Shown piece after piece: positions 2-38,445 of a stretch of 38,937 nt of DNA. Position 1 is the first letter of the stretch. Each line of letters starts with the position of its first letter. The position numbers were made by a program, and so were the translations under genes. The DNA comes from Anaerolineales bacterium Chloro_02 (GTDB lineage Bacteria; Chloroflexota; Anaerolineae; Anaerolineales; Anaerolineaceae): contig LUZV01000032.1 in assembly GCA_001603765.1 (NCBI GenBank), positions 1-38,937 on the forward strand, written 5' to 3'. Under the pieces are notes generated by a model, which was not told the DNA's origin, did not search any database, and saw nothing but the letters and a program-made list of their open reading frames with translations.

Positions 2-2077
2 CTGGAAAAAGGCGGCATTCGTGATTTGATTGCCGACATTTATGATATGGATGGTCAGGAAGTGACTACGCAAGTCGCCGACAGTATCAAGGATATCGGT
101 TTCCGTTTTGCCTCCCAATCCGGCTCCACGCTGGCGGTCGCTGATATCACCGTTCCGCCAGAAAAAGCCGAATACATCCAGACGGCGCTGCTGGAAGTAG
201 AACGTGTTCAGAAAGAATATCGCCGTGGTTTGCTGACAGAGCAGGAACAGAACGACCTGATTATTGAAGTATGGCAAGACACAACAAAGAAGGTTGGAGA
301 CGCAGTTAAAAAGCATCTTGATCCAAATGGCAACCTTTCCACGATGGCTGTTTCCGGGGCAACAAAAGGTGGTTTTAGCCCTATTTCACAGATGGCTGGA
401 ATGCGCGGTTTGATGGCTGATCCGTCTGGTCGAATTATCCCAATGCCTATCCGCTCAAACTTCCGTGAAGGGCTGTCCGCGCTGGAATACTTTATTTCCA
501 CGCATGGTACCCGCAAGGGCTTGGCTGATACCGCTATCCGAACCGCTGACGCAGGGTATCTGACAAGGCGTTTGGTGGATGTTGCGCAGGATATGATCAT
601 CAATAGTGAAGACTGCGGCACCGAGGAAGGCATTTGGATTTCAGCGGCAGATGACGTGGCAGGACAGCCTTTTAGCGAACGAATTTTTGGACGTCTGCTG
701 GCGGAACGTGTCCTTGACGCCGAAACCGGCGAGGTCATCGGTGAACCCAACGACATGATTAATAAGGAACTCAGCCGTAAGATCATTAAAGCTGGAGTGA
801 AGAAGGTGAAAGTGCGTTCTCCACTAACCTGTGAGCTAATTCACGGGATTTGTTCACGATGCTACGGTATGGATCTTGGTCGGGGCAATCTGGTTGAACT
901 TGGGTCGGCTGTCGGTGTTGTGGCTGCCCAGTCCATTGGTGAGCCTGGCACACAGCTGACACTGCGAACCTTCCACACGGGTGGTGTGGCAGGCGGCGGT
1001 GATATTACCACTGGTCTTCCCCGTGTTGAGGAGCTTTTTGAAGCACGGCGGATGCCCCGCGGCGAAGCAGTAATCACTCAAATAAACGGCAAAGCCCACA
1101 TTATGGTTTCCGACAAGAATCCTGATATTCGCACTGTGCGCGTGGAAAGCAGCGGGATGGTCTCTCAGCGCTATGCTATCCCGACTGGTTGGGAAATCAT
1201 GGTGCAGGATGAAGACGAAGTCAAAAAAGACGCGGTGCTTGCAGTTCACGAAGAAACAGCCGTTAGAGCGGAACACGAAGGCAGAGTGCGGATCGAGGAC
1301 GGCGAGGTTGTGGTTTCGTATGAAGATCGCATAAGCGAGGATTACGAAATTCCTTCGACTTCCCGCCTTTTGATTTCTGAAGGACAAATGGTGATTGCGG
1401 GCGAACAGCTGACCGAAGGGTCGCTCAACCCCCATACCATTTTGAAGATCAATGGTCCTGAGGCAACTGAACTTTATCTGCTGAAGGAAATCCAACAAGT
1501 TTACCGCACGCAGGGTCAGAACATCAACGACAAGCATTTTGAGGTCATTATCCGCAAGATGCTGAATAAGGTTCAGATCACTCGCCCCGGCGACTCGGAA
1601 TTCCTGCCGCAGGATTTGGTTGACCGCCTTGAAATCCGCAAAATCAATGATGACCTGGTGGCACGCGGTCTGCGCCCCGCGCGCTTCCTGAACGTGTTGT
1701 TAGGTGTCTCGAAGGCATCGCTGAGCACGGATTCGTTCCTCTCCGCGGCGTCCTTCCAACATACGATTAAGGTTCTGGCTGGCGCGGCGATCTCCTCCAA
1801 GGAAGACCCGCTTTATGGCTTGAAGGAGAACGTCATCATTGGCAAGCTCATTCCGGCCGGAAATGGCTTTGTTCCTGGTCGCTTTGATGATCAGTTGGCA
1901 GAGACAGATCTGGGCAACCTTGATATTGCTAACCAGCAGATGCATATTTTCACCGATGATGCAGACCTTTCAGAAGGTTTGTATGACGATGAAGACGATA
2001 TTGAAGCTGGCGATTATGATTTGTATGATGAGGGTGGGCTCGACGATGATGAAGACCTCACGGACGATGAAGAGTAG
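2..2077 (+). CDS. rpoC: DNA-directed RNA polymerase subunit beta' (C-terminal part, 5' end outside window)
   Basis: The frame is open from the window edge (the track start at 26 is only a TTG). It carries conserved beta' motifs [16 protein letters not shown] (trigger loop) and [19 protein letters not shown], and ends in an acidic D/E tail. Confidence 0.93.
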
Positions 2078-2104
2078 TCCAACGAGGAGTATGTAATAAA
2101 AAAG

Positions 2105-2136
2105 ACCCGGAGTGGACCATCACTTCGGGTTTTTTT
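2105..2136 (+). terminator. Rho-independent terminator after rpoC
   Basis: Stem ACCCGGAGT / ACTTCGGGT (one mismatch) is followed by a T7 run, 28 nt after the rpoC stop. Confidence 0.7.
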
Positions 2137-2194
2137 ATGCTATAGTTGGTGAAAATTGAGAAAAATAACGGCTGAAGCAGAGAAAGAGCGGAAT

Positions 2195-4642
2195 ATGAAC
2201 TCAACCGCCACCCAAAAAGTTAATATCAACGCTGAGATGCAACAATCGTATCTGGATTATGCGATGAGCGTCATTGTTTCGCGCGCGCTGCCTGACGCGA
2301 GAGACGGTCTGAAACCGGTTCAGCGGAGAATCTTGTATGCCATGTACGATATGGGCATACGCGACGACACTCCGCATAAAAAATCGGCTCGTATTGTTGG
2401 CGAAGTGCTTGGCAAATATCATCCGCACGGCGATACGGCTGTTTATGACGCGATGGCAAGGATGGCGCAGGACTTTTCGGAGCGCTATCTTTTGGTCGAT
2501 GGACAGGGGAACTTCGGCAGTGTGGACGGTGATCCACCAGCAGCCATGCGCTACACTGAAGCAAGACTTTCTTCGCCTGCGATCGAGATATTACGCCAAC
2601 TCGACCTGGATACCGTTGATTACATTGACAATTTTGACGGAACGTTAAAAGAGCCGGAAGTGCTGCCTTCCGCAATCCCGAACATGCTAGTTAATGGGGC
2701 TTCGGGTATAGCCGTTGGGATGGCAACCAACATCCCGCCTCACAACCTCGGGGAAGTGGTGGACGCTTTGGTGATGATGCTTGAAAACTGGGATGACATT
2801 GAAAACATCACTGTCGAAGACATCATGCGTTTCATCAAAGGACCTGATTTTCCGACCGGTGGTTTGATTATTCAGGACGAAGGCTCAATCCCTCTGACGA
2901 CGATTTACGGCAGCGGAAATGGAACGGTAAAAGTACGAGCGCGCACGCGGATTGAGGAAATGTCTCGCGGGCGGATGAGGATCATCGTGACTGAATTGCC
3001 CTACATGGTCAATAAATCCGCGCTGATCGAGAGGATCGCCGAGATCTCGCGCGAAGGCGGGCTGGAGGGTCTTTCGGACCTGAGGGATGAATCGGATCGG
3101 CAGGGTATGCGGATCGTGATCGACCTGAACAAAAACGCTGACCCTGAGGAAGTTTTAGCAACGCTGTATAAACGCACTCAGATGCATAACACTTTCGGGA
3201 TCAACATTCTGGCTTTAGTGGATGGCAGCCCGCACCGCTTGACCCTGAAACAGGCTCTGAGAGTCTTCGCGGATCACCGATTGACGATTATCCGAAGGCG
3301 CAGCGAGTATCTGCTGAAGAAAAACGAAGATCGACTGCACATTCTGGAAGCGCTAAAGGTGGCAATCGATCATATTGATGAAGTCATCCGGATTATCCGA
3401 AAATCCGCATCAGTAGAAGAAGCGCGCGAGAACCTGATGGCAAAGTATAAGCTTGATGAAATTCAGGCGAACGCGATTCTCGAGATGCCGCTGCGCCGTT
3501 TAGCCTCGTTGGAACGGAAGAAAATTGAGGATGAATTCAAGGAAGTCAGTAAAACTATTGCTGAACTCAAAGCGCTGCTGAAGTCGCCTAAAATGATGCG
3601 CAAAGTGGCAGTAGAGGAGCTGAAAGCAATTAAACAGAAATATGGCGACTCCAGGCGGACTCAGATTATTCACTTGGGCGAAGGCGAAAAGGCATCAGAT
3701 ATGTTTACGATGACCGACGTCATGCCAGTGGAGAACTTCTGGATTGAAGCGAGCGAAAACGGGCTGCTTTCGCGAACGGACGCGGATAAACCCAATCGGC
3801 TCGGTGGCGATGGCGCCCCATGGAATATGGTCCGCACGAACACCCATCAAACCATCTTTTTGGTGACGACAGAAGGAAAGGCAGCGGCAATCTCTTCTTA
3901 CTCGGTGCCGGTACAGAAGGCTGATGAAGAGGGCGTGCCCGTTTCGAAGTTGGCGCCGCTGCATCAAAATGATATCCTTCAAGGGATTTTTGCCGTCCCA
4001 ATCAATGGGGAGCCGGCAGATGAGCGCTTTGTAGTCACAGTTACCAGGCAGGGCATGATTAAACGCTCAGCGATCTCGGATCTGCCCGGGGCATCGGCTA
4101 GCGCGTTTACGTTGGTGAAGGTCAACGATAACGACGAGCTATTTGAGGTGCTGCTGACAAGGGGCAATCAGGATATTCTGCTGACGACAGCCAGCGGGAT
4201 GGCGATTCGATTTAGTGAAACCGAAGTCAGGGCAATGGGGTTGATCGCGGCGGGTGTAAACGCGATTAAATTAAAGCCCGGCGATTATGTTGTTGGCGCC
4301 TCTATTGTTGAAGACAAAGATGAGGTGGCGATGATCACCCAAAGAGGTTTGGCAAAGCGCATGCCAGGAACGGAGTTCCCGGTGCAGGGCAGGTATGGGC
4401 AGGGTGTGATTGGCTGGAAGCTCGGCAAAGAAGATCAAATTTGCGCGGTCATTGTTGGAAAACTGACCGATAAAGGCATCTGCCATTTTCAGAAGAGTGC
4501 CAGCAAGGTCTTTACAATCACAAACGCCATCAGTAGAAAACGAGCCTCAAATGGGCAGGAACTGTTTACACTAAAGCCCAATGATGAAGTGATTGGCTTC
4601 ACCAACCTGGACGATTTTGTTCAGTTTTGGGAAAAAGCTTAG
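2195..4642 (+). CDS. gyrA: DNA gyrase subunit A
   Basis: Motifs [28 protein letters not shown] and YHPHGD (QRDR), with C-terminal beta-pinwheel repeats. The ATG at 2195 is preferred over the TTG at 2156. Confidence 0.95.
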
Positions 4643-5229
4643 CCTTGCGCCGCGTTTGGGCTGAGGTTGCCCTCGAGATCCAGCTCCTTCGCGATTTTGC
4701 GCATAGCCATAATTGAAAAATCAACGTGCTGCCAAAGATCCAGCCCGAATTCCTGGGCACCTTGAGCAATTAAATCCCGATCGGCGCCAGCCGCGAAGGA
4801 TTTATCTTTCCATTTCTTACGGACGGATGATGCCTGAAGATCGTAAAGCGAGCGGGAGGGTCTGACGAGAGCCACTGCGGTAATCAGACCCGTCACCTCG
4901 TCGCAAGCGAAAAGAGCTTTGGCAAGGCGGCTCTCGCGAGGGATGCCGGTATGGTCAGAATGCGCGCCAATAGCTTCTATCACGTCTTCAGGAACACCAG
5001 CCTCGCGCAAGATAGGCAGCCCAGCCAGGGGATGTTCTTCGGCAGTTGGGTGTATCTCCCAGTCAAAATCGTGAAGCAAGCCTGTCAAGCCCCACAAGTC
5101 AATATCCTCACTGAGCGCTTCGGCATAAGTGCGCATGACAGCCTCGACACTGAGCATATGGCGCACGAGGGCTTCGTTTTTAACATAGGTTCTCACAAAA
5201 TCCAAAGCTTGTTGTCGCTGCATAAACAC
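4639..5229 (-). CDS. HD-domain metal-dependent phosphohydrolase
   Basis: HD signature LLHDFDWE plus downstream His residues (GAHSDH). The 196 aa length is typical of stand-alone HD/HDIG hydrolases. Confidence 0.7.
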
Positions 5230-5232
5230 CTC

Positions 5233-5880
5233 TCAGGGAGTAAAAATGGGTTCTGGTTTGCCCAGAATTGGTTCTGGTTTTAGAAAAAAGACATCAAGAT
5301 AGGCTGCCACGCTGGCAAAAACCTCCCGAAAATTCCAGAAAATGTATCGGCTGCGAAGATAATCGGACTGTTTCACCGCTAAACCGGAGGCTTTGAGACC
5401 AAACTGATTACACAGGAAAATCATCCGCGGCAAATGGTAATTTTGAGTTGTGATGATGACTGAATTTAGGCCGAATATTTCTTTAGCGCGGTAGCATGTG
5501 TCGTAAGTGCGGCGACCGGCATAGTCAATGACGACGTCCGCTTCCGGAACGCCTTGCTCAACCGCGTAATTTGCCATAACACCGGGTTCGTTGTAGTGGA
5601 TTGAACTGTTATCGCCAGAAACGAGGATTTTTTGAACTTTTCCGGCAAAATAAAGATCAATCGCGCCGTCCAGCCTGTCTCGCAGGGCGAGAGTCGGGCG
5701 ACCGTCAGCAGTGATGCCAGCGCCGGGGACCAGGGCAACCTGGGCTGACGGGATTGAATCAAGATCAAAGATCTGAGATTGAGTGGTCATGATCAGCGCA
5801 ACGCGGGAAAGACCAAGCAGAAAAAAAGAAACGCAGGCAAGGATCAAGAGAAGACGGATGAACTTTTTCATGGCGATCAA
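5233..5880 (-). CDS. DUF218 (SanA/YdcF-like) membrane-anchored protein
   Basis: An N-terminal TM helix is followed by ALVPGAG...LALRDRL...KILVSGDN, typical of the SanA/YdcF family. Confidence 0.65.
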   Translation of the reverse strand: MIAMKKFIRLLLILACVSFFLLGLSRVALIMTTQSQIFDLDSIPSAQVALVPGAGITADGRPTLALRDRLDGAIDLYFAGKVQKILVSGDNSSIHYNEPGVMANYAVEQGVPEADVVIDYAGRRTYDTCYRAKEIFGLNSVIITTQNYHLPRMIFLCNQFGLKASGLAVKQSDYLRSRYIFWNFREVFASVAAYLDVFFLKPEPILGKPEPIFTP

Positions 5881-6932
5881 TTGGAAAGAAGATCGGCAAG
5901 CCGCACGTTCGTGACAGCCAGCAGTTCGCGCAGGGTGGAATAGGCGCTATCCGGCAAAGGTTCCAGCGCCGCGACTTCATAGTTGAGCGCGAGGCTGAGC
6001 TGAGCCTTACCGGCATCTGTCCGGGCGAATTCGCGCAAAAAATCAGATACGCGGGACTGCAGACTGAGATCCACCTGAGGGGAAAAAGACAAATTTAGAT
6101 TTGGGATGATCTGAGGGGATAGCCACAGGACGGGGAGCTTTTCAATCGTGTCTGGGAGGTCTTTTATGACCTCAGACGAAGTGCGCGGGTCCGCCGAAAC
6201 GGCGTAGGTGGCGGCGTAACCGCAGACGCCTTTGATGTAAAGCGCTCGGATGGCGGCACTGTACGAATAAGTTTGGACTGGCTCAAGGAACGGGATGTTG
6301 TTTTGGATCAGGTAGCCCAGAGGGACCCAATAACCTGCCAGCGAATGGTCGTCCGTCAGGCAGCCGCGCAGACCAGAGAGCTGCGCCAGCGCGGCGCTGG
6401 CAGGGGCTGTGGAAGTATGTGTGCCGACGTTGAAATACGGCACCATGCCGCTATCGGAATGACCAAGGAACTGTACGCCGTAGCCTGTGACGCCGAGGTG
6501 GTTGCTGACAAGGAGAGACGTGGCAAGCCCTTTTTGGGAAGCAAGCAGATATTCAACCGGCTGCAACCAGGCAAAATGCACCTGCTGCCGCTGAAGGGCA
6601 TATTCAAGATCGTGATAACTGCTGAAAAAACGAGCCGTAACGCTTTGCTGTAAGAGGATTCCAAGCTGGTTGGCGATTTCCGATAGAGCAGATTGCTGTT
6701 CGGTTGTGGGAGATGGATGAACCAACGCAATCACAATGGGGTTTTCAGCTGACCCTAACGCGGCAGGAGTGGGGGTGAAAGTGGGCATGGCGGTTGGGTA
6801 GCCAGGGTTGGGGGTGGAAGTGGAAAAGTCGTGCGAGAGGGTTGGAACTGTTTGTCCGCTGACCCCGCAGGCAGAAAGCAGCAGGCTCGCAACAAGGCTC
6901 AGAATCAAAAATGACTTACGCATGTCAAACAT
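5877..6932 (-). CDS. PhnD-like (phosphonate/phosphite-type) substrate-binding lipoprotein
   Basis: Lipobox LLLSAC, a Pro/Thr linker, then a periplasmic-binding-protein-like body. No ABC permease or ATPase gene is adjacent. Confidence 0.5.
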   Translation of the reverse strand: MFDMRKSFLILSLVASLLLSACGVSGQTVPTLSHDFSTSTPNPGYPTAMPTFTPTPAALGSAENPIVIALVHPSPTTEQQSALSEIANQLGILLQQSVTARFFSSYHDLEYALQRQQVHFAWLQPVEYLLASQKGLATSLLVSNHLGVTGYGVQFLGHSDSGMVPYFNVGTHTSTAPASAALAQLSGLRGCLTDDHSLAGYWVPLGYLIQNNIPFLEPVQTYSYSAAIRALYIKGVCGYAATYAVSADPRTSSEVIKDLPDTIEKLPVLWLSPQIIPNLNLSFSPQVDLSLQSRVSDFLREFARTDAGKAQLSLALNYEVAALEPLPDSAYSTLRELLAVTNVRLADLLSN

Positions 6933-30218: not shown

Positions 30219-30482
30219 TTACTTCTTCCCTGTAGCCTTGGGCTTTTTTACCACCCCCTCGGACTGTCTTTCCACCCCCTCTTTAGAGGGGGATAAAGGG
30301 GGTGTGGGCAGGGGGGTGCTTACAGCCTTATCTTCTGCCGGCCTGAGTTCCTTGGTTTCAGCTGGCTTCACAGACTTCGTTTCAACCGCCTTCAACCCGA
30401 GCCTTTTTCCTTCGCCTTCCGGCAGCAAAATCCCCTGCCCTTTCTCTTCGTCCAACCAGAATTCCATCAGTTTTCTGTCCAT
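30219..30482 (-). CDS. Small Lys/Pro/Glu-rich head-module protein carrying repeat copy A
   Basis: An 87-aa ORF between the capsid and connector genes. Its C-terminal half is the repeat-encoded TPLPTPPLSPSKEGVERQSEGVVKK. Confidence 0.5.
   Translation of the reverse strand: MDRKLMEFWLDEEKGQGILLPEGEGKRLGLKAVETKSVKPAETKELRPAEDKAVSTPLPTPPLSPSKEGVERQSEGVVKKPKATGKK
30251..30318 (-). repeat. G/C-tract hairpin repeat, copy A (in frame)
   Basis: CCACCCCCTC occurs twice. The hairpin is CCCCCTC-ttta-GAGGGGG (30275..30292), followed by GATAAAGGGGG and CAGGGGGGTG. Confidence 0.7.
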
Positions 30483-30541: not shown

Positions 30542-31822
30542 TTATGTGCCAGCGGTTGTAATCTTTACAAACGCCTTGGGCTTGATCACGCCGAATGCGG
30601 CGCGTACCTCACCCAAAACGGCCAGCAAATTGCGGACAAAGAAGTCCGCGTGGCTGTCGCTGATGCTGATTGAGGCTTGCTCACGGTCCCATAACACTGC
30701 TTTTTTCCAGTTAGCAAGGTAACCAGTCTTGGCAGTCAGCCCGAAGTATTCCACCACGGGCACCCGCCACAGTGATTTTTGATAGGGCAGGTAAGGCGCG
30801 GCGCTGAAAAGAGCCAACTCCAAGCCTTCCCAGTCGCTCGGTGAGAGCACAAACGCGGTCGGCTTTTCATTCCCGTTTGTCTTCAGGTTTGTGATTGCCT
30901 TGCGGCTGGTGGTCAGCAGGTCGGTGGCGAATGCCTGGGTCAAAATGCCCGTAGTGCCGGCAATACCCGCAAATTGCGGGGTTCCACTCCCCTCAAGGAT
31001 CATGTCCTCGATTTCCTCATTGAGCGCGTCCCGCAGTTCCTGGTTGATAATGCCCCGCAGCTGCGCGGCATCAGCCATAGCCCGTTTTGTAACAGGCAGC
31101 CACACTGCGATCGTTTCCACCAAAGCGGTCATTCTCGCGAAGGTCATTGTGCCTTCGGGTTTATAGCCGCCGCCGGCGTTAGGGGTGACGGTGCTTGTGT
31201 AAGCCAGGGGGTCACCTGCAGCAGTTGTTACCACTGTCGGTGCGGCACCGGAGGTTGCTTCTGCCACTGCGGCAGCCTGGGTGATCTTTGCGGTCTGCAC
31301 CACAAAATCGACCGCGTCACTCTCGGTCTGTCGCACACTGATCAGGTCTCGGATTCCAGGTTCTTTGTAACCCAGCCGGCCGTACTCGCCAGAATCTTCA
31401 TTCTGGATAAACGCGCCGGCAGAGGTGTCTGAAAGACCGGTGATCACTGCCTTGCTTTCCAGCGGCATCTTTACCTGGAAGGATGGTGAGTTCAATCCCT
31501 TGGCACTGTCAGGGATGCGCCCGTCCGGCGCAACTGATTTCAGCCAGGTTTTGAATTCTTTGGACTGGACAAACTGACTGCCCAGATCAGCGGAAACATG
31601 ACTCTTTTTGTCGGGTTCCTCACCGCGGATAGCCTCAGCTTCCAACTGCTTGATTTTGTTCTGCAGCGCGATGTCATCCAAACCTTGTTTGGCTTCTTTG
31701 ACCATGTTTTCAGAGCGATTGCGCTCATCATCGGTCATGACGCGACCCTCGGCAACTGCCTTTTCAACAATTTCGCGAGCATCGGCAAGTAAAGTCTTAA
31801 ATTTAGTGTCGTTCATTTTCAA
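30542..31822 (-). CDS. HK97-family major capsid protein with N-terminal delta (scaffold) domain
   Basis: About 110 aa of coiled-coil N-terminus, then an HK97-fold-like body. It directly follows the prohead protease gene. Confidence 0.85.
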   Translation of the reverse strand: MKMNDTKFKTLLADAREIVEKAVAEGRVMTDDERNRSENMVKEAKQGLDDIALQNKIKQLEAEAIRGEEPDKKSHVSADLGSQFVQSKEFKTWLKSVAPDGRIPDSAKGLNSPSFQVKMPLESKAVITGLSDTSAGAFIQNEDSGEYGRLGYKEPGIRDLISVRQTESDAVDFVVQTAKITQAAAVAEATSGAAPTVVTTAAGDPLAYTSTVTPNAGGGYKPEGTMTFARMTALVETIAVWLPVTKRAMADAAQLRGIINQELRDALNEEIEDMILEGSGTPQFAGIAGTTGILTQAFATDLLTTSRKAITNLKTNGNEKPTAFVLSPSDWEGLELALFSAAPYLPYQKSLWRVPVVEYFGLTAKTGYLANWKKAVLWDREQASISISDSHADFFVRNLLAVLGEVRAAFGVIKPKAFVKITTAGT

Positions 31823-32813
31823 ACTCCATTTCTGTAATAGTGATTAGTAGTTCCATATCCTTTGGATCAACACCGCTCGCGTTATCGTCTTCTACGACCT
31901 CCGCTTCAGTTCCTTCCTTAGGTTCAATCGCTTCCTCGTCGGAAGCGGATTTGATAATTGTGGTTTGGGTGTTGTTGCCGGCACCAATCAGCACCGGGCT
32001 CACCTCGTAAACATCCAGCTCTTCCAGATGCCGGATTTCGTCGTTGCCGATTTTCCTGATTGACCTTTGCAGCACGTTGAAGCCGTAGCTCCACTCCTGC
32101 AGCTCGCCCAGGTTCTTCACTGTTTTGTAAGTTTCCATTCCGCCGGTCGTGTCCAGGAAGAATTCACCATCCACCCAGGCTTTTTCTCCGTCTTGATGGA
32201 TCACACCCCTTCCCACCGGCAGCGCGTCCCAGTTGTGCCCCCAGGCGGCAATTCTGACGGCCGCCCCGTCTTTGAATGCGCCAGCTACCGTTATGTCGCC
32301 TTGCTTGTCAACTTCGCCAAATCGGCTGAAAATCGCCTGAAAAACGCCGCTCTGGTCGCTGTCGTCCTTGAACTCAATCGTTGTTTTGAAAGATTTCTTT
32401 TCCATTGTTTTATTCCCTTCTTTTTTGTTTGCGTCGAACCAGCGGTCAATATACTCATGCCATTCTTCTGGTCTGCCGTCCTGGTCGCAGCGGATATGCG
32501 CTTCTTCCCGGCTGATTTCGATTTCAACCAGTTCAGCTTCAAATCGCTTTACCAAAACTTGCGCTTTTTCTTTACTCCTGGCACCTGTGATGATCCAGGC
32601 GTCCAGTTCCGGATGTAATTCGATTGTTTGATAGACTTTTTCAACCAGATCCAGCATCGCTCGGGTGAGTTTTTCCACTCGCACCTTGCTTGGCATCCCT
32701 GAAATTGCTTGATATATGGCGTCATAATCGCAGATCAGATCGCCTTCCTTGGCATTCTTTTGCACATACGTGCTTTTGCCGGAACAGGGTGGACCCCAAA
32801 CGATAGTTCTCAT
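31803..32813 (-). CDS. P-loop NTPase/kinase-like domain fused in frame to HK97-family prohead protease (S78)
   Basis: aa 1-136 carry a Walker A GPPCSGKST and a Walker B-like LDAWIITG. aa 137-336 carry FQAIFSRFGEVDKQGDITVAGAF...WGHNW..PVG...EWSYGF...EVSPVLIGA. An internal ATG at 32405 is preceded by GAAGGGA. Confidence 0.75.
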   Translation of the reverse strand: MRTIVWGPPCSGKSTYVQKNAKEGDLICDYDAIYQAISGMPSKVRVEKLTRAMLDLVEKVYQTIELHPELDAWIITGARSKEKAQVLVKRFEAELVEIEISREEAHIRCDQDGRPEEWHEYIDRWFDANKKEGNKTMEKKSFKTTIEFKDDSDQSGVFQAIFSRFGEVDKQGDITVAGAFKDGAAVRIAAWGHNWDALPVGRGVIHQDGEKAWVDGEFFLDTTGGMETYKTVKNLGELQEWSYGFNVLQRSIRKIGNDEIRHLEELDVYEVSPVLIGAGNNTQTTIIKSASDEEAIEPKEGTEAEVVEDDNASGVDPKDMELLITITEMEFENERH

Positions 32814-34801
32814 TCTTTAGCTCTCCCATAAACCAGCGAGCATTGACAATACGCCACCTCACTGGCTCCAGCTCGATAATCTCCTGGCCACATCGCCCCG
32901 TTGGGGAACGTGTCTCTGATTCCCACGGTTACGCCGTTCAGCGCTGCGTGGGTGTCCCTCGGGTGGCCGCTTCTGGTAACCCAGGTCTTGGTTTTGATCA
33001 ATCCGCTTTTTTCCGCGACGTCATATTCCGCGAAATTCTCCAGCTCGTGCACTCTGAACATCACAAATCGCAATAAACCGCTGGCCAGCAGTGCCGCAAA
33101 GACCTTCTTCACGGCCTCCAGTGGATCTTCACCACCCATTACTTTTGCCAGCTGTTCATACGTGCTTCTATTCAGGTTTTCCGCTGCTATCCGCGAGTTG
33201 GTTTTCAGGAACTCTTCCATCCATTCAGGGTTGTACGCAAACGCCAGCTGACTGGCAAAAGCTCTGGCGTATGCCCCTGCCGTTGTTTTTGAAAGCGCAA
33301 AGAAATCCGCCGAGACTTCCCTGTTCCATCGTTCCTCATCCCACCATAGAGGGAGACTTTTCGCGCTTTTGATCAGCGGCAATACGGCGTCCCGCTGCCT
33401 GGTAAGCGTTTTGCTGACCAGCTCGGTCCAATCCTTCACCGCTTCTTCAGTGATCTCCGGAAATTCAGGCTTCACCGTGAAACCCGCTGCCTTCTTCCCC
33501 CCCTCTGCTTGCCTTTCAACCCCCTCCACGGAGGGGGGCAGGGGGGTGGGTGCTGTCCTGTCAACCGACTTCCCGTCATTCGGTTCCTGATAGGTCGCTG
33601 GCGTGCTCATGTTCAGCGGCGTCACCAGCTGATCAGCCTCAGGGCTGTCAATCCTCGGCAGGTTCATCCGTTCCCTGGCTTCGTTGGCAGTCATGTAGGG
33701 CACGCCCACAGCCTGGCGGAAACTTGCTGTCTGCTTCTCAAAATCACCCTGCAGCTTCGCTTCAATGTTGAATTCAACGTAAGCGCCCTGCATGTCCGGA
33801 AATTCACTCAAATATTGCGTGTCAAAGTCATCCTGCACAGATCTGAACAGCGGACCCAACACATCGGTGTAAAGGCTCTTGTTTTGGCTTTCGATGTTGT
33901 TAAAAGTTGAACGCTCTAAGATCCCCACCATTGGCGGCGGGATGTGATAAGCTCTGGCGCACTCTTCCCGCGTCAGTTTCCGGCTTTCGATGTACAGCGT
34001 GTCCTTTGGTGCCCAGCTGATCGGCTTGAACTGCATCCCCTCTTCCAGCACCGCGGTCTTGCCTGCATTGTCCTGACCGGAATAAAGCGATTCCCACTGC
34101 GCCCTGAAGTTTGCCCTGGCTGCGTCACTCCAGTCATTAGCTTCTGGCGGCCGTTCAATCACCCCGCCAATTCGGGCAGCGTTCTGCCAGAACTTAGAGG
34201 AATACTTTGTGTTTTCGTGCTCCTCTGCCAGAATCTCGCGCAACCCTTCCAGCGGCGAGATGCCGTAGGTGTTGTTGTGCGGGTTGTAGGTCCTGAAGTG
34301 GATCACCTCGCTGGGTTCAATCTTCAGCTCACTTTTTCCCAGATTGACTCGGTAAAGGGTCGGGGTCAAAACGCCTTCCACACTGACCAGCATGTAAGGG
34401 ATCCGCAGCAGCCCCTTGAGCTTGTTATCACCATCCCTGATCTTTAGCAGGTACCCATTCCCGCTGACAAACATGTCAGAAAGCACCGATTCCAGCATCT
34501 TGTAGGTTGTGACCTTGTTGTCATTCGGCAGCGGCCGTTTCAGGATCTGCACGGCTTCATGCTCCCGCAGCCTTACCCTGCCGTTGTCTTTGTCGCGTGT
34601 GTACACGTGCAAGCCTGGGTGCGCCATATTGCGCGCCAAAAAGTCCACACAGATCTTGACGTTGTTATGCCTGCGGTACATGGCTTCATAATCCAGCGTG
34701 TAATCACTGTACGTGTCAAGGCTGATAAAGCCTCCGTTCGTTGGCCACCAGCCAGCTGGCAGGGACGAGAGTGTCGCTTCAGAGATGATCGTGCTACCCA
34801 T
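32810..34801 (-). CDS. Portal protein (HK97 family) fused to a Mu-F/SPP1 gp7-like minor head domain
   Basis: The N-terminal ~410 aa are portal-like. The C-terminus THAALNGVT...WPGDYRAGASEVAYCQCSLVY carries the Phage_Mu_F signature. Repeat copy B forms the linker. Confidence 0.8.
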   Translation of the reverse strand: MGSTIISEATLSSLPAGWWPTNGGFISLDTYSDYTLDYEAMYRRHNNVKICVDFLARNMAHPGLHVYTRDKDNGRVRLREHEAVQILKRPLPNDNKVTTYKMLESVLSDMFVSGNGYLLKIRDGDNKLKGLLRIPYMLVSVEGVLTPTLYRVNLGKSELKIEPSEVIHFRTYNPHNNTYGISPLEGLREILAEEHENTKYSSKFWQNAARIGGVIERPPEANDWSDAARANFRAQWESLYSGQDNAGKTAVLEEGMQFKPISWAPKDTLYIESRKLTREECARAYHIPPPMVGILERSTFNNIESQNKSLYTDVLGPLFRSVQDDFDTQYLSEFPDMQGAYVEFNIEAKLQGDFEKQTASFRQAVGVPYMTANEARERMNLPRIDSPEADQLVTPLNMSTPATYQEPNDGKSVDRTAPTPLPPSVEGVERQAEGGKKAAGFTVKPEFPEITEEAVKDWTELVSKTLTRQRDAVLPLIKSAKSLPLWWDEERWNREVSADFFALSKTTAGAYARAFASQLAFAYNPEWMEEFLKTNSRIAAENLNRSTYEQLAKVMGGEDPLEAVKKVFAALLASGLLRFVMFRVHELENFAEYDVAEKSGLIKTKTWVTRSGHPRDTHAALNGVTVGIRDTFPNGAMWPGDYRAGASEVAYCQCSLVYGRAKE
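33497..33552 (-). repeat. G/C-tract hairpin repeat, copy B (in frame, portal-MuF linker)
   Basis: CCCCCCTC...CCCCCTC-cacg-GAGGGGG (33520..33537), followed by CAGGGGGGTGGGTGCT. It encodes APTPLPPSVEGVERQAEGGKK. Confidence 0.7.
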
Positions 34802-35003
34802 TCAGCACCTGCATAAAATCGACATCCGCGGTGAATATCAACACCTCACCGTCAACCTTTCGGGTGTGGCCGTTTTCGTGCAGCACCGCATCTCGCAGCA
34901 CCAGGTAATCGCCCCGGCGTTTCCAGAGCACTCCCTGGAAGGCTTTGTCGGATTTCAGGTTCACGATCACCTTGCGCACAATTGCATAAAATCCAAATGT
35001 CAT
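34794..35003 (-). CDS. Small protein with Sm/LSm-like sequence pattern
   Basis: 69 aa: KVIVNLKSDKAFQGVLWKRRGDYLVLRDAVL...DGEVLIFTADVDFMQVL. It is coupled by ATGA to the TerL stop and overlaps the portal start. Confidence 0.55.
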   Translation of the reverse strand: MTFGFYAIVRKVIVNLKSDKAFQGVLWKRRGDYLVLRDAVLHENGHTRKVDGEVLIFTADVDFMQVLNG

Positions 35004-37615
35004 AGGACCTCCAGACCTCTGGTTTCGTAAACAGATTTATGCGGCTCAGTCGCGTGTCTGATTGCCCGGTCTGTCGCCATGATTCCGGCAACGATGCCGT
35101 CAATCTTCTGCCGGCTTTTTGACTTGTCCGGTTTGATGTTCCCAGCAGCGTCCGTGGTGGTCATCACGTTATCCGCCATCCAGCGCAAAACAGGGTGGCT
35201 CCCATGCCGCAATCGCTTGTTCAATACCAGGCGCTCGACTTCTTTGGTTGGTGGGCTCATGCTCACATACCCCTGGCCAAACCCCACCAGAGTGAACCCC
35301 ATATTCATCAGCGTCTGGCTGATCTGCGTTGCTCCCCAGCGGTCAAAAGCGATTTCTTTGATGTTGAACCTTTCGCCCAGCTTTTCAATCTCTGCCAGGA
35401 TCCAGTCGTAATCAATCACGTTCCCGGGTGTCGCGATCATGAACCCCTGGTCCACCCACCCCTGGTACAGCTCCCGGTCTTTGAAAGATCGGTCTGTCAG
35501 CTTCTCTTCGGGCACGAACAAGCGCGGGATCCAGCTGTGCATCTCTGGTTCTCCGGGTTCATTCGGCACGTCCAAAACAAACGCGGCAATGTCAGAGACC
35601 GATGCCAGGTCAAGCCCACCGTAAGCAACCGAGCCTTCCAGCATCTTTTCGTCCAGCTCGTCAACCCCGCAGGCGTCCCATGCAGCCATATCCAGCCAGC
35701 GTGTCTCCTGACTCGTCCACATGTTGAGATACAGCCGTTTGAAGGTGTTCTGGTATGCAGGGCTGTTTTTTGCCTTCTCAAACTCCTGCCTCAGATATTC
35801 GATCTTGATTGTGTCCCCCAGGCTTGGGTTTGCCTTTGCCCAGGTCTCTTCGGATTCCCAGTCGTCCGTTGGGGACGCCTCGTAGATTGCCGGATAAAAC
35901 CAATCCATCTGGATGATGCCGTCTCTCACCTGGCAGGCGCGTTCATAAACTTCGTAACAGATAGATGTGCGGTCGTAACCGGCGGTAGTCATCGAGAGCA
36001 AAAGCGGCTGCCGCCTGGCTCCAAAGCTCGTTTGGATCGTGTCGTACAGTTCCCGGTCCTTCTGGGTGTGCAGCTCGTCAAACGCGGCTCCGTGCAAGTT
36101 GCCGCCGTGCTTTCCGCCTGCATCGCTTGAAACCACCTTGTAGACGCTTGCCCCTTGCTTGCCGACGATGGCATTGCGAAAAGGCGAAACCACCTGCGAG
36201 AGGGTCGAGTTCTGCATGACCATGAACCGCGCTGTGTCAAAGATCAGCCTGGCTTGCTCCCGGTCTGCGGCGATCGAGATCAACTCCGCGCCTGGTTCCT
36301 GGTCTACAATCAGCAGGTAGAGCATAATTGCCGCGCCTAAGGCTGAATTGTGCGTAGGAATCAAATGTCTGCCAGCGAGGTACATCCCTCCATCAACTGT
36401 TATACAATTGACAATTCTTTTTCCAGTACGCACCACGTTAGAGATCTTCCGCGTTTGGCTTCTTTGTTTAGTAACAGGCATTTCTTTTTGCCGGGAAGAT
36501 TTCCGCTTTACATAAGAAACATCGATGTCGTTGTAAGCAAAAAATTGAGCTCTGTATCTGGGGCCACAATCTTTACCGTAGAGTTTTGCGCGGTCAACCA
36601 TCACTCGAGGCTTATACCCAAGCCCAACCAACAATTCAACAACTTGCTCAAATAACAATCTGTTTACAAGGACTATTTCACATTGACCAGCTTTTGATAC
36701 AAAACCATCGGTATCCATAATCCCGCGCAACAATTCCATACGCTGTTCTGTAGACCCCATGAGGTATTCTGAGGGTATATGTTTATTGTGAACAAGTCCG
36801 TTTCTTATTAACTGCTTTTTGAATTTTCCCATGCCGACCAGATAGGAGTAGCGATACTTGTATTCAGCTTCATACCCATATTCTGATAACTTCTCAACAA
36901 TTTCAGGCTCTGATATTGTTATCCTTGCGGTATTGCAATCTCCGTCCCCCAGCCAAACACCAAGAACATATGGAGGAATTTCATACTCCTTTTCAGGGAA
37001 TTGTAGGGGTTTAGCTACATCAACTGAATGTACTATATCGTTGCGTGCGCCAGCCCTAAGTGTTTTGGCTATCTCTTTAGTGGTAACAAGGGGTTTTTCA
37101 CCTCTTACCCATTTAGGTTTTCCTGTGTGGACAGTTCGATTAGTTTTCCATTCATGATTTTCATGGGCAATAATGGCATCATCCCCCGAAAAATCCACAT
37201 AGTAACATTCTCCTTCATAATGCGGGGTAACATAACGAACTTTTGTGGGCACTCCTTCTGGGGTAAATACATAATCGCCTGGGGCTAAATCACCGTGGTT
37301 TTTCCATCCTTCGGTAGTCATAATTGGAGTGTTAACTTCCAAAGCTTTTCCGTTTTTCCTGGCCACAAATACAAATGCTTCCCGATATCGCCTGAAACCG
37401 GTCTCTTTTTCTTTCCAGCCAAACAGATTGCTTACCAGTTCCTTTTCCCAGTCCAAAAGCAAAAATGGTTTTCCGCCCAGATCACCTTTCACGTGGGTTA
37501 TATACGTTTCGATAAAATCAACCGCCACTTGCCCAGCCACAGCGTCATATGCGTACCTTTCGAGGTCACACTTCCAGGGATCGTAGATCTTGGGTGCTGT
37601 CACTTTCTCACTCAT
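35000..37615 (-). CDS. terL: Terminase large subunit (Terminase_1 family) interrupted by an intein
   Basis: The Walker A reads ARKNGK|...|SALGAA once the insert is removed, and C-terminal nuclease domain motifs are present. The ATG at 37615 (SD AGAGGG) is preferred over the GTG at 37621. Confidence 0.9.
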   Translation of the reverse strand: MSEKVTAPKIYDPWKCDLERYAYDAVAGQVAVDFIETYITHVKGDLGGKPFLLLDWEKELVSNLFGWKEKETGFRRYREAFVFVARKNGKALEVNTPIMTTEGWKNHGDLAPGDYVFTPEGVPTKVRYVTPHYEGECYYVDFSGDDAIIAHENHEWKTNRTVHTGKPKWVRGEKPLVTTKEIAKTLRAGARNDIVHSVDVAKPLQFPEKEYEIPPYVLGVWLGDGDCNTARITISEPEIVEKLSEYGYEAEYKYRYSYLVGMGKFKKQLIRNGLVHNKHIPSEYLMGSTEQRMELLRGIMDTDGFVSKAGQCEIVLVNRLLFEQVVELLVGLGYKPRVMVDRAKLYGKDCGPRYRAQFFAYNDIDVSYVKRKSSRQKEMPVTKQRSQTRKISNVVRTGKRIVNCITVDGGMYLAGRHLIPTHNSALGAAIMLYLLIVDQEPGAELISIAADREQARLIFDTARFMVMQNSTLSQVVSPFRNAIVGKQGASVYKVVSSDAGGKHGGNLHGAAFDELHTQKDRELYDTIQTSFGARRQPLLLSMTTAGYDRTSICYEVYERACQVRDGIIQMDWFYPAIYEASPTDDWESEETWAKANPSLGDTIKIEYLRQEFEKAKNSPAYQNTFKRLYLNMWTSQETRWLDMAAWDACGVDELDEKMLEGSVAYGGLDLASVSDIAAFVLDVPNEPGEPEMHSWIPRLFVPEEKLTDRSFKDRELYQGWVDQGFMIATPGNVIDYDWILAEIEKLGERFNIKEIAFDRWGATQISQTLMNMGFTLVGFGQGYVSMSPPTKEVERLVLNKRLRHGSHPVLRWMADNVMTTTDAAGNIKPDKSKSRQKIDGIVAGIMATDRAIRHATEPHKSVYETRGLEVL
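36347..37345 (-). mobile_element. Intein (333 aa) with LAGLIDADG homing endonuclease, class-3 WCT signature
   Basis: Block A ALEVNTPIMTTEG. Block B IIAHENHEW. LAGLIDADG motifs LGVWLGDGD and LLRGIMDTDGF. Block F IVNCITVDG. Block G LIPTHN followed by Ser+1. Confidence 0.85.
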
Positions 37616-38150
37616 GAGCACCCTCTTCTACTTTCTTACGTGCGGTATTAAACAGACTGTCTGCCAGGGAAAGGCTTTTGTCGTTTGGAGAGAGCGCTTT
37701 TACCCGTGTCCGCTCAGCTGGAGTAAGTCCAAACTGCGTCAGCATGTCCTTCACTTGCTTCCACGCCGTGTTGGCAATCCCGACATTCGGGTGTTGATAC
37801 ACCGTGGCTTTGTCGGTGATCACAATGTTCCCGGACTTCATCAAAGCTTTTCTGGCAGCTACCATGTCGCCATACGCCATACAAAGCAGCTCGAGCGCCG
37901 TATAGTCACCGCTGGAATACAATCCTGCCTCTTTCAGCTGTGGACCCAGCTCCCGCCATAAACGCTTACCGTAAAGGTTCATCGTGCTGGGCGGCTTAGG
38001 AAACGCCTCAGGAACTTCAAAGACAGCCTGTGAGTTGTTCACACGGCTCTTTTTGAGCGTTCCCTGCGCTTCTTTGATTGCATCTGGCACTGGTTTCCTA
38101 CCGCGCACGCCTTCTCCATCTTTCGCCGGCTGGGTTGTGCTCTGCCTCAT
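37608..38150 (-). CDS. terS: Terminase small subunit (P27 family)
   Basis: RGRKPVPDAIKEAQGTLKKSR...LWRELGPQLKEAGL...DYTALELLCMAY. The start is uncertain: either the ATG at 38150 or the GTG at 38108, which has GGAG 5 nt upstream. Confidence 0.7.
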   Translation of the reverse strand: MRQSTTQPAKDGEGVRGRKPVPDAIKEAQGTLKKSRVNNSQAVFEVPEAFPKPPSTMNLYGKRLWRELGPQLKEAGLYSSGDYTALELLCMAYGDMVAARKALMKSGNIVITDKATVYQHPNVGIANTAWKQVKDMLTQFGLTPAERTRVKALSPNDKSLSLADSLFNTARKKVEEGAHE

Positions 38151-38445
38151 GGCAGCGCCGGCATAATGCTTCCAGATTGTCTTCATCATCCGCGCCACCT
38201 TCACGTTTTCGGATGATGTGATGCGCCAGCTCCGCGGGTTCTCCGCATCGTTCACAGAGGGGGTTGTGAGCCAGGAAGATCTTGGATCGCTTCTGCCAGA
38301 CGGGATCGTCATACGTTATGTCCCTTGGACGTTCCCACTGTTTCAGGTATTCCCGCTGGTGTTCCGGACATCTGTAAACATTCGGAGTGGATACCAGGTT
38401 TGGACAGCCGGGCACCATGCAGGGTCTCTTAGGACTGATCGCCAT
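38098..38445 (-). CDS. HNH endonuclease (terminase-associated)
   Basis: CxxC...CxxH zinc-finger layout CMVPGCPN, CERCGEPAELAHHI and LCRRCHEAEHN, immediately upstream of TerS. Confidence 0.85.
   Translation of the reverse strand: MAISPKRPCMVPGCPNLVSTPNVYRCPEHQREYLKQWERPRDITYDDPVWQKRSKIFLAHNPLCERCGEPAELAHHIIRKREGGADDEDNLEALCRRCHEAEHNPAGERWRRRAR

Follow-up and report, generated by a model that had tools for sequence, protein, structure and literature searches.

The 38,937-nt stretch of DNA analysed here (hereafter the window) is contig LUZV01000032.1 of Anaerolineales bacterium Chloro_02. Between the portal and major capsid genes of a prophage, it carries a single gene in which a P-loop domain resembling polynucleotide kinases is joined to a prohead protease of the S78 family. 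The open reading frame (ORF) runs through 336 amino acids (aa) with zero internal stops, and its ATG overlaps the stop codon of the portal gene (ATGA at 32810-32813). The features of the gene are listed below, with model confidence given as the predicted local distance difference test (pLDDT) and selection as the ratio of nonsynonymous to synonymous substitution rates (dN/dS).

31803..32813, minus strand: fusion ORF (P0001), 336 aa, consisting in order of the P-loop kinase-like domain, a linker, the S78 prohead protease, an acidic segment and a C-terminal helix
32421..32813, minus strand: polynucleotide kinase (PNK)-like P-loop domain, aa 1-131, assigned from the AlphaFold2 model (pLDDT 95.3), structural Z-scores, a profile match and dN/dS (0.034)
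32772..32795, minus strand: Walker A motif GPPCSGKS, aa 7-14, with G7, G12 and K13 invariant in 147 relatives
32721..32741, minus strand: acidic motif D25...D29-x-D31, nearly invariant
32414..32420, minus strand: Shine-Dalgarno (SD)-like GAAGGGA, 8 nt upstream of the internal ATG
32403..32405, minus strand: internal ATG (M137), predicted start of a protease-only isoform
32379..32420, minus strand: disordered Lys-rich linker, aa 132-145, pLDDT < 50
31944..32378, minus strand: S78 prohead protease fold, aa 146-290, from Pfam and the model
32235-32237, minus strand: H193, invariant in 76 homologues
32088-32090, minus strand: S242, invariant in 76 homologues
31872..31943, minus strand: acidic disordered segment, aa 291-314, from the model, with a tail dN/dS of 0.86
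31809..31865, minus strand: C-terminal helix, aa 317-335, from the model, unobstructed by the N-terminal fusion

The initial annotation had described an in-frame, stop-free fusion of 336 aa, and the reading of the ORF together with its homologues bears this out. The identical 336-aa protein is found on six contigs, and about 20 clusters of fused homologues, 330-520 aa long and from 85% down to 41% identical, keep the frame open. Compared with the 85%-identical homologue of relative L002, dN/dS is 0.034 for the N-terminal domain, 0.147 for the protease and 0.86 for the acidic tail. The N-terminal domain, with five amino-acid changes in its 130 codons at a dS of 0.48, is under strong purifying selection. 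Fusions of this kinase-like domain to a prohead protease are widespread in phage sequence data.

Structure prediction agrees with the earlier proposal that the first 136 residues form a compact kinase-type P-loop domain. The AlphaFold2 model, for which an alignment of 147 domain copies (A4) was the input, reaches a pLDDT of 95.3 and a predicted template modelling score (pTM) of 0.87. It has a four-stranded P-loop core with a helical lid. In a VIA structural search against representatives, T4 Pnk ranked first (1ltq, Z 13.3; 1ly1, Z 13.2), followed by Pnkp1 (Z 13.2), O-phosphoseryl-tRNA kinase (PSTK; Z 12.1) and the kinase domain of C. thermocellum Pnkp (CthPnkp; Z 11.9). The remaining kinases scored at Z ≤ 10.7, with zeta toxin at 9.4. 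Superpositions on polynucleotide kinases gave root-mean-square deviations of 2.9-3.8 over 130-139 residues, and Foldseek returned a TM-score of 0.71 to both 4gp7 and 2ia5.

At the sequence level, the Pfam family AAA_33 (PF13671) matches aa 4-104 weakly (E 0.013; 16.2 bits, below the gathering threshold of 27), and the same family is matched by 102 of the top 150 relatives at E ≤ 0.001. A single-sequence search of the domain against PDB sequences gave chance-level matches only, and a profile search was needed: with it, the whole domain matches the kinase domain of CthPnkp at E 1.8e-4, and the alignment pairs the Walker A motifs, D31 with the Asp of SSD, and the Arg-rich lids. An NCBIfam search of the domain returned nothing useful. 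The PADLOC defence models gave zero matches to it, so there is no sign of a defence-system origin.

The conserved residues are of a catalytic type. Besides the invariant Walker A positions, P9, D25, D29, D31, R108 and W125 are near-invariant in the 147 relatives. R108, together with an R-P motif at position 114 that is kept in the fused homologues and the family consensus, aligns with the Arg-rich lid of CthPnkp. D31 corresponds to the Asp that follows strand 2 and acts as general base in polynucleotide kinases. The segment LDAWIITG, earlier called Walker B-like, does form the core β-strand where Walker B is expected (modelled as E72-76), but the family has no conserved acidic residue in it. 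The domain thus shares with the kinase domains of T4 Pnk and Pnkp the fold (Z 11.9-13.3, TM 0.71) and an aligned Walker A, post-strand-2 Asp and lid Arg. It differs from them in its small size of ~130 aa, in having no phosphatase or ligase partner domain, acceptor-binding Arg or conserved acidic Walker B residue, and in an identity of only 13-18%. By its modelled fold and catalytic-type residues, it resembles a PNK-type phosphotransferase and is a candidate member of that family.

The C-terminal part is a prohead protease. Pfam Peptidase_S78 (PF04586) matches aa 150-290 at E 5.7e-13, its 49.8 bits being well over the cut-off of 21. Across 76 protease homologues, just two columns never vary, H193 and S242, which we take to be the catalytic His/Ser pair of HK97. 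The proheadase_HK97 model TIGR01543 scores 43.5 bits, below its cut-off of 59. By sequence, the protease therefore classifies as a member of the S78 family, yet not as an HK97 equivalog. It resembles the HK97 gp4-type protease (MEROPS S78, PF04586) in the family match, the invariant His/Ser, the position between portal and capsid genes, and the acidic disordered segment with its terminal helix; unlike gp4, it bears a 131-aa N-terminal kinase-like domain and stays below the TIGR01543 cut-off. In the model of the full-length protein, two domains (aa 1-131 and 146-290) are folded independently, and the overall pTM of 0.49 indicates that they have no fixed packing on each other. By analogy with HK97 gp4, the helix at aa 317-335 is a candidate capsid-binding tail.

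The protease appears to have kept a start of its own. The initial annotation had pointed to an in-frame ATG at 32405 preceded by GAAGGGA, and both lie where it placed them (GAAGGGA at 32420-32414). Among protease-only homologues, 27 of 45 begin exactly at the M137 column (MEKKSF...) and 42 of 45 within three residues of it. In the alignment of fused S78 proteins (A5), 23 of 31 have Met at that column, seven more have one within -8 to +3 residues and one has none, against a background Met frequency of 1.6%. The window has an SD-like motif ahead of its internal ATG, and so do three (L002, L007 with GGAGG, and L005) of four relatives that were inspected. The split relative L048 has GGAAGGAAT at the corresponding place, ahead of a separate protease gene, so that the motif is common to the split and the fused gene. 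The fusion gene of a Corynebacterium phage has no ATG in the junction region. Since 30 of 31 fused proteins retain the protease Met and an SD-like motif is present, two isoforms are likely, and the gene probably yields both a long kinase-protease and an ordinary 200-aa protease. In lambda C/Nu3 and P2 gpO, one frame gives a long product and a shorter C-terminal product from an internal SD and ATG, and both products act in head assembly. The window gene would be similar in its in-frame internal SD-like motif and ATG at the domain boundary; its N-terminal extra part differs in being an enzyme-like domain rather than a part of a protease or scaffold.

The domain is not always part of the head module. 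A contig from the Logan collection (L001) has the same head module, with flanks of ~95% nucleotide identity, and no P-loop domain. Aligned with the window, L001 has a clean ~400-nt gap that opens directly behind the portal stop and closes at the protease ATG, and the L001 protease, 86% identical over the common part, begins with MEKKSF. Thus, the P-loop domain is an optional accessory cassette of the portal-protease gap.

To define its relatives, aa 1-136 were used in a HMMER search, which found 1239 cluster representatives at E ≤ 0.001. The Pfam partner domains tallied in the top 150 of these 1239 are as follows.

Peptidase_S78: 30
CLP_protease: 3
HNH: 25
HNH_5: 5
Phage_capsid: 2

The HNH fusions, about 30 among the top 150, occur in both domain orders, and the rest of the 150 are mostly standalone proteins of about 135-180 aa. 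In P0124, a P-loop-ClpP fusion, the N-terminal domain is 59% identical to that of the window; other architectures are P-loop-capsid (P0129), P-loop-S78-capsid (P0156) and P-loop-HNH (P0201). One ClpP fusion follows the large terminase subunit (TerL) and portal genes, and one S78 fusion stands in the order small terminase subunit (TerS), TerL, portal, P-loop-S78, capsid. On contig L006 (Logan SRR35396595), an integrase-bearing element at 891-6298 encodes a P-loop-capsid fusion of 536 aa and then a separate S78 protease. No terminase or portal was seen on this 6.5-kb contig, and the element may be satellite-like. HNH was considered as an obligatory companion of the cassette and rejected, as L002 and L005 have an HNH-free TerS neighbourhood. 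A 203-aa protein, P0121, has a close relative of the N-terminal domain (59-62% identity) joined to an apparent C-terminal part of a head-tail adaptor; it probably arose by deletion while its prophage was decaying.

The survey of fused versus split genes suggested by the initial annotation found both forms within one clade. In L048 and L049 the order is HNH, TerS, TerL, a 69-aa ORF, portal, a P-loop gene of 165 aa, then TGA, one base and the ATG of an S78 gene of 215 aa, followed by capsid. This split P-loop protein, 59% identical to the domain of the window, occurs in 30 blocks of the collection (24 contigs were read). In L047 the P-loop and protease genes are separate, with 30 nt between them. 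A word-indexed search for shorter homologues gave a single protein and overlooked the known split form P0122; the counts do not draw on that search. In the domain tree, the S78 fusion of the window groups at 99% support with a ClpP-fused copy, a split copy and two others, and at least six changes of protease- or capsid-fusion state are forced by well-supported branches. Elsewhere the tree has poor resolution, with 79 of its 144 forks left open, and only its well-supported (starred) branches were used. An optional segment of ~30 aa with a GDLI..W.AA..E motif links P-loop domain and protease in the fused P0006 and forms the C-terminal tail of the split P0122.

We then propose a model for the gene, in which we have moderate confidence. 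The best explanation appears to be a two-part, probably two-product head gene whose long form would be carried as cargo into the procapsid. A cassette for a minimal, putative PNK-like P-loop enzyme sits between the portal and protease genes of an HK97-type head module. Because the cassette has no stop codon, translation from its ATG, coupled to the portal stop, would run on to give the 336-aa kinase-protease, while the SD-like motif and the ATG of M137 would give the ordinary 200-aa protease. The long form should co-assemble with the short form inside the procapsid, because the C-terminal tail of the protease stays free. An enzyme of ~15 kDa would in this way be carried into the shell on a flexible linker of 14 residues. 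Maturation proteolysis could then free the kinase-like domain inside the shell, and the released domain might be delivered with the DNA, with nucleic-acid 5'-OH ends as the presumed phosphate acceptors. Encapsidation of the long isoform, its release, its delivery and the use of both starts are all inferred.

Several observations are consistent with loading into the head. HK97 gp4 reportedly co-assembles inside the procapsid via its C-terminal part (Duda, Oh and Hendrix 2013). According to a review, green fluorescent protein (GFP) fused to a protease segment of gp4 is encapsidated in HK97 shells, and a passenger flexibly linked to the N-terminus should therefore also enter the shell. The window protein has the arrangement expected of a passenger, namely an N-terminal fusion to a protein of the procapsid interior with the C-terminal helix (aa 317-335) free in the model. 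All non-HNH fusion partners of the domain, which are the S78 protease, the ClpP-type protease and the capsid N-terminus, face the procapsid interior. The case for head loading is strengthened by the domain's independent fusions to capsid proteins and to a prohead protease of the ClpP type, which is not homologous to S78. It is tempting to generalize, though tentatively and with considerable doubt, that many temperate siphophages use the N-terminus of the capsid protein or a prohead protease, whether S78 or ClpP-type, to preload a minimal nucleic-acid 5'-kinase, which is released by maturation cleavage, delivered with the DNA and heals 5'-OH ends in the next host. If so, the ends healed would belong either to the phage genome, prior to cos ligation, or to RNA that host defences have cut.

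Other observations weigh against the cargo model. The Arg that binds the acceptor phosphate in T4 Pnk and CthPnkp, at Asp +3, is replaced by Y34 in the window protein and by a non-basic residue in the consensus of the family, and the Walker B position has no conserved acidic residue (family consensus AWII(T/S)). Since some phages encode the domain in a gene of its own just ahead of the protease gene, the covalent link is not required for its role. Its HNH-fused and standalone forms adjoin terminase genes, outside the head genes. Gene fusions join only neighbours, so the set of partners partly mirrors gene order. Finally, the host is an uncultured Anaerolineaceae-like metagenome-assembled genome (MAG).

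An alternative that is possible, if doubtful, is that the fusion is incidental. The cassette would be a late accessory gene of the portal-protease gap in which loss of the stop codon was tolerated, the protease still being made from its own start; the kinase would act in the cytoplasm and any loading would be a by-product. Such a history fits the interconversion of split and fused forms within one tight clade and the single stop codon and single base that part the genes in the split form. It also fits the predominance of standalone forms, which make up 79 of the 148 representatives that were sorted by geometry, and a near-identical phage dispensing with the cassette. However, the fusions are frequent and old, being found in 35 of 147 representatives, some below 30% identity, with at least six changes of state. 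They involve three unrelated partners of the head interior (S78, ClpP-type and capsid) and never the upstream portal, and the fused N-terminal domain is more constrained than the protease.

An improbable alternative is that the domain belongs to the packaging machinery as a kinase for genome ends, which phosphorylates the 5'-OH termini left by cos cleavage by HNH and terminase. The HNH fusions and the location in the head module would then reflect action on DNA ends, either while the genome is packaged or once it has entered the cell. Among the top 150 relatives, about 30 are HNH-fused in either order, such genes are the last before cos and terminase in Lactobacillus and Mycobacterium phages, the arrangement HNH-TerS-TerL is present in the window and in L048, and the closest folds are nucleic-acid 5'-kinases. 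However, HNH and terminase nucleases leave 5'-phosphate ends, so a kinase should be unneeded at genome ends. Moreover, the TerS neighbourhood of the fusion-bearing L002 and L005 is HNH-free, and the acceptor-binding Arg of Pnk is missing.

There is very little chance that the domain serves as a nucleotide-dependent regulator or chaperone of the protease, for instance by keeping it inactive until assembly. Such a role would suit its constant place ahead of a head protease of either family, whether fused on the N-terminal side or encoded immediately upstream, but the model has no fixed interdomain contact (pTM 0.49, disordered linker), near-identical phages mature without the domain, the domain is also found HNH-fused or standalone far from any protease, and its kinase-type Asp and Arg residues are conserved. 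Lastly, an assembly or sequencing artefact that conceals a stop codon or frameshift between two genes, a check raised in the initial annotation, can be discounted even though split and fused versions differ by very little sequence at the junction, because six contigs carry the identical protein, about 20 open-framed clusters at 41-85% identity come from independent samples, deposited phage genomes carry the fusion, and the N-terminal domain has a dN/dS of 0.034.

We return to the cargo model to compare it with known systems. The nearest published concept is that of injected effectors, zeta-toxin-like kinases among them, whose domains are fused to MuF or portal proteins. Like these effectors and other capsid passengers (T4 internal proteins, Alt, GFP-gp4), the window protein would have an effector attached to a protein or tag of the procapsid interior. 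It differs from them in that its putative carrier is a whole active protease and its kinase is PNK-like rather than zeta-like (Z 9.4). The architecture was initially thought not to be a standard one of head modules. No description of a kinase-protease fusion was found in the literature searched; in sequence data, however, the fusion is common, forms PHROG 9644 and is present in deposited Corynebacterium phages. The family phrog_9644, annotated as 'head maturation protease', has the same P-loop-protease fusion in the portal/capsid gap, and its profile covers aa 3-292 of the window protein. The same fusion in Corynebacterium phage LGCM was deposited as 'capsid and scaffold protein'. These proteins are ~30% identical to that of the window, and their annotations are silent on the extra domain.

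The domain family also includes genes under other names. Actinobacteriophage 'polynucleotide kinase' genes such as BigNuz gp82 belong to it (tblastn E 1e-8 to 2e-6), as do the 'small terminase' genes of Lactobacillus phages Lrm1 and J-1 (phrog_4581, E 3.5e-27). Unlike the window gene, those of the BigNuz gp82 type and of Lrm1/J-1 are standalone or HNH-fused, lie at the cos-proximal end of the genome and are unjoined to a protease. The phrog_4581 profile consists of HNH plus P-loop and is an apparent source of the label 'terminase small subunit', which P-loop relatives, standalone or HNH-fused, carry in RefSeq and Lrm1-type records, namely NC_023692, NC_028796, NC_022756, EU246945 and others. 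For the P-loop domain of the window, an identity as terminase small subunit was rejected, since the window has its own P27-type TerS and the label goes back to the HNH-plus-P-loop profile of phrog_4581. On the relatives the label is probably wrong, and it has apparently spread from Lrm1 and phrog_4581; the present assignment would correct this spreading mis-annotation.

The usual view of small HK97-type phages is that they pack little besides DNA and that the protease, having digested itself, exits the head. An enzyme domain swapped repeatedly among unrelated head proteases and capsid proteins suggests that there is a common, unstudied route for loading enzymes into simple heads. The fusion may also offer a natural design for cargo loading in HK97-type shells.

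The genes around the fusion form an HK97-type prophage head module, and the prophage spans roughly from 18.7 kb to the end of the window. On one strand, the order is HNH, P27-type TerS, TerL with a LAGLIDADG-type insert, a 69-aa ORF, portal, fusion, capsid and head-tail adaptor. Related head genes are found mostly in MAGs of Anaerolineaceae and other Chloroflexota. The neighbours with defined boundaries are the following.

38098..38445, minus strand: separate HNH endonuclease gene, upstream of TerS, for a kind of protein that other phages have fused to the P-loop domain
32810..34801, minus strand: portal gene, 663 aa, upstream neighbour of the fusion
30542..31822, minus strand: major capsid protein gene, downstream neighbour of the fusion

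The major capsid gene more likely starts at the ATG at 31816 than at the start of its ORF, as GGAG precedes that ATG.

The large terminase (35000-37621, minus strand) is 873 aa long, and an insert of the LAGLIDADG/Hom_end type separates its N-terminus from the ATPase domain. The terminases of the close relatives L001, L002 and L048 are 534-538 aa long and have no such insert. The 69-aa ORF in the terminase/portal gap (34794-35003, minus strand), to which Pfam gives zero matches, keeps its length and position in L001, L002 and L048 and is 78 aa in L007. The portal (32810-34801, minus strand) shows weak similarity to Mu F-like proteins over aa 589-656 (E 0.2), and portals are similarly long (648-651 aa) in relatives with and without the kinase cassette. 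In the protease of the cassette-free relative (P0007, L001 4001-4660), the acidic tail carries an extra peptide of the PPLSPSEEGV type. The same type of motif is also present in the window, in an 87-aa ORF (30219-30482) and at aa ~416-435 of the portal. An in-frame PPLSPSEEGV-type repeat element thus also inserts into head proteases, as the acidic tail of P0007 carries the motif.

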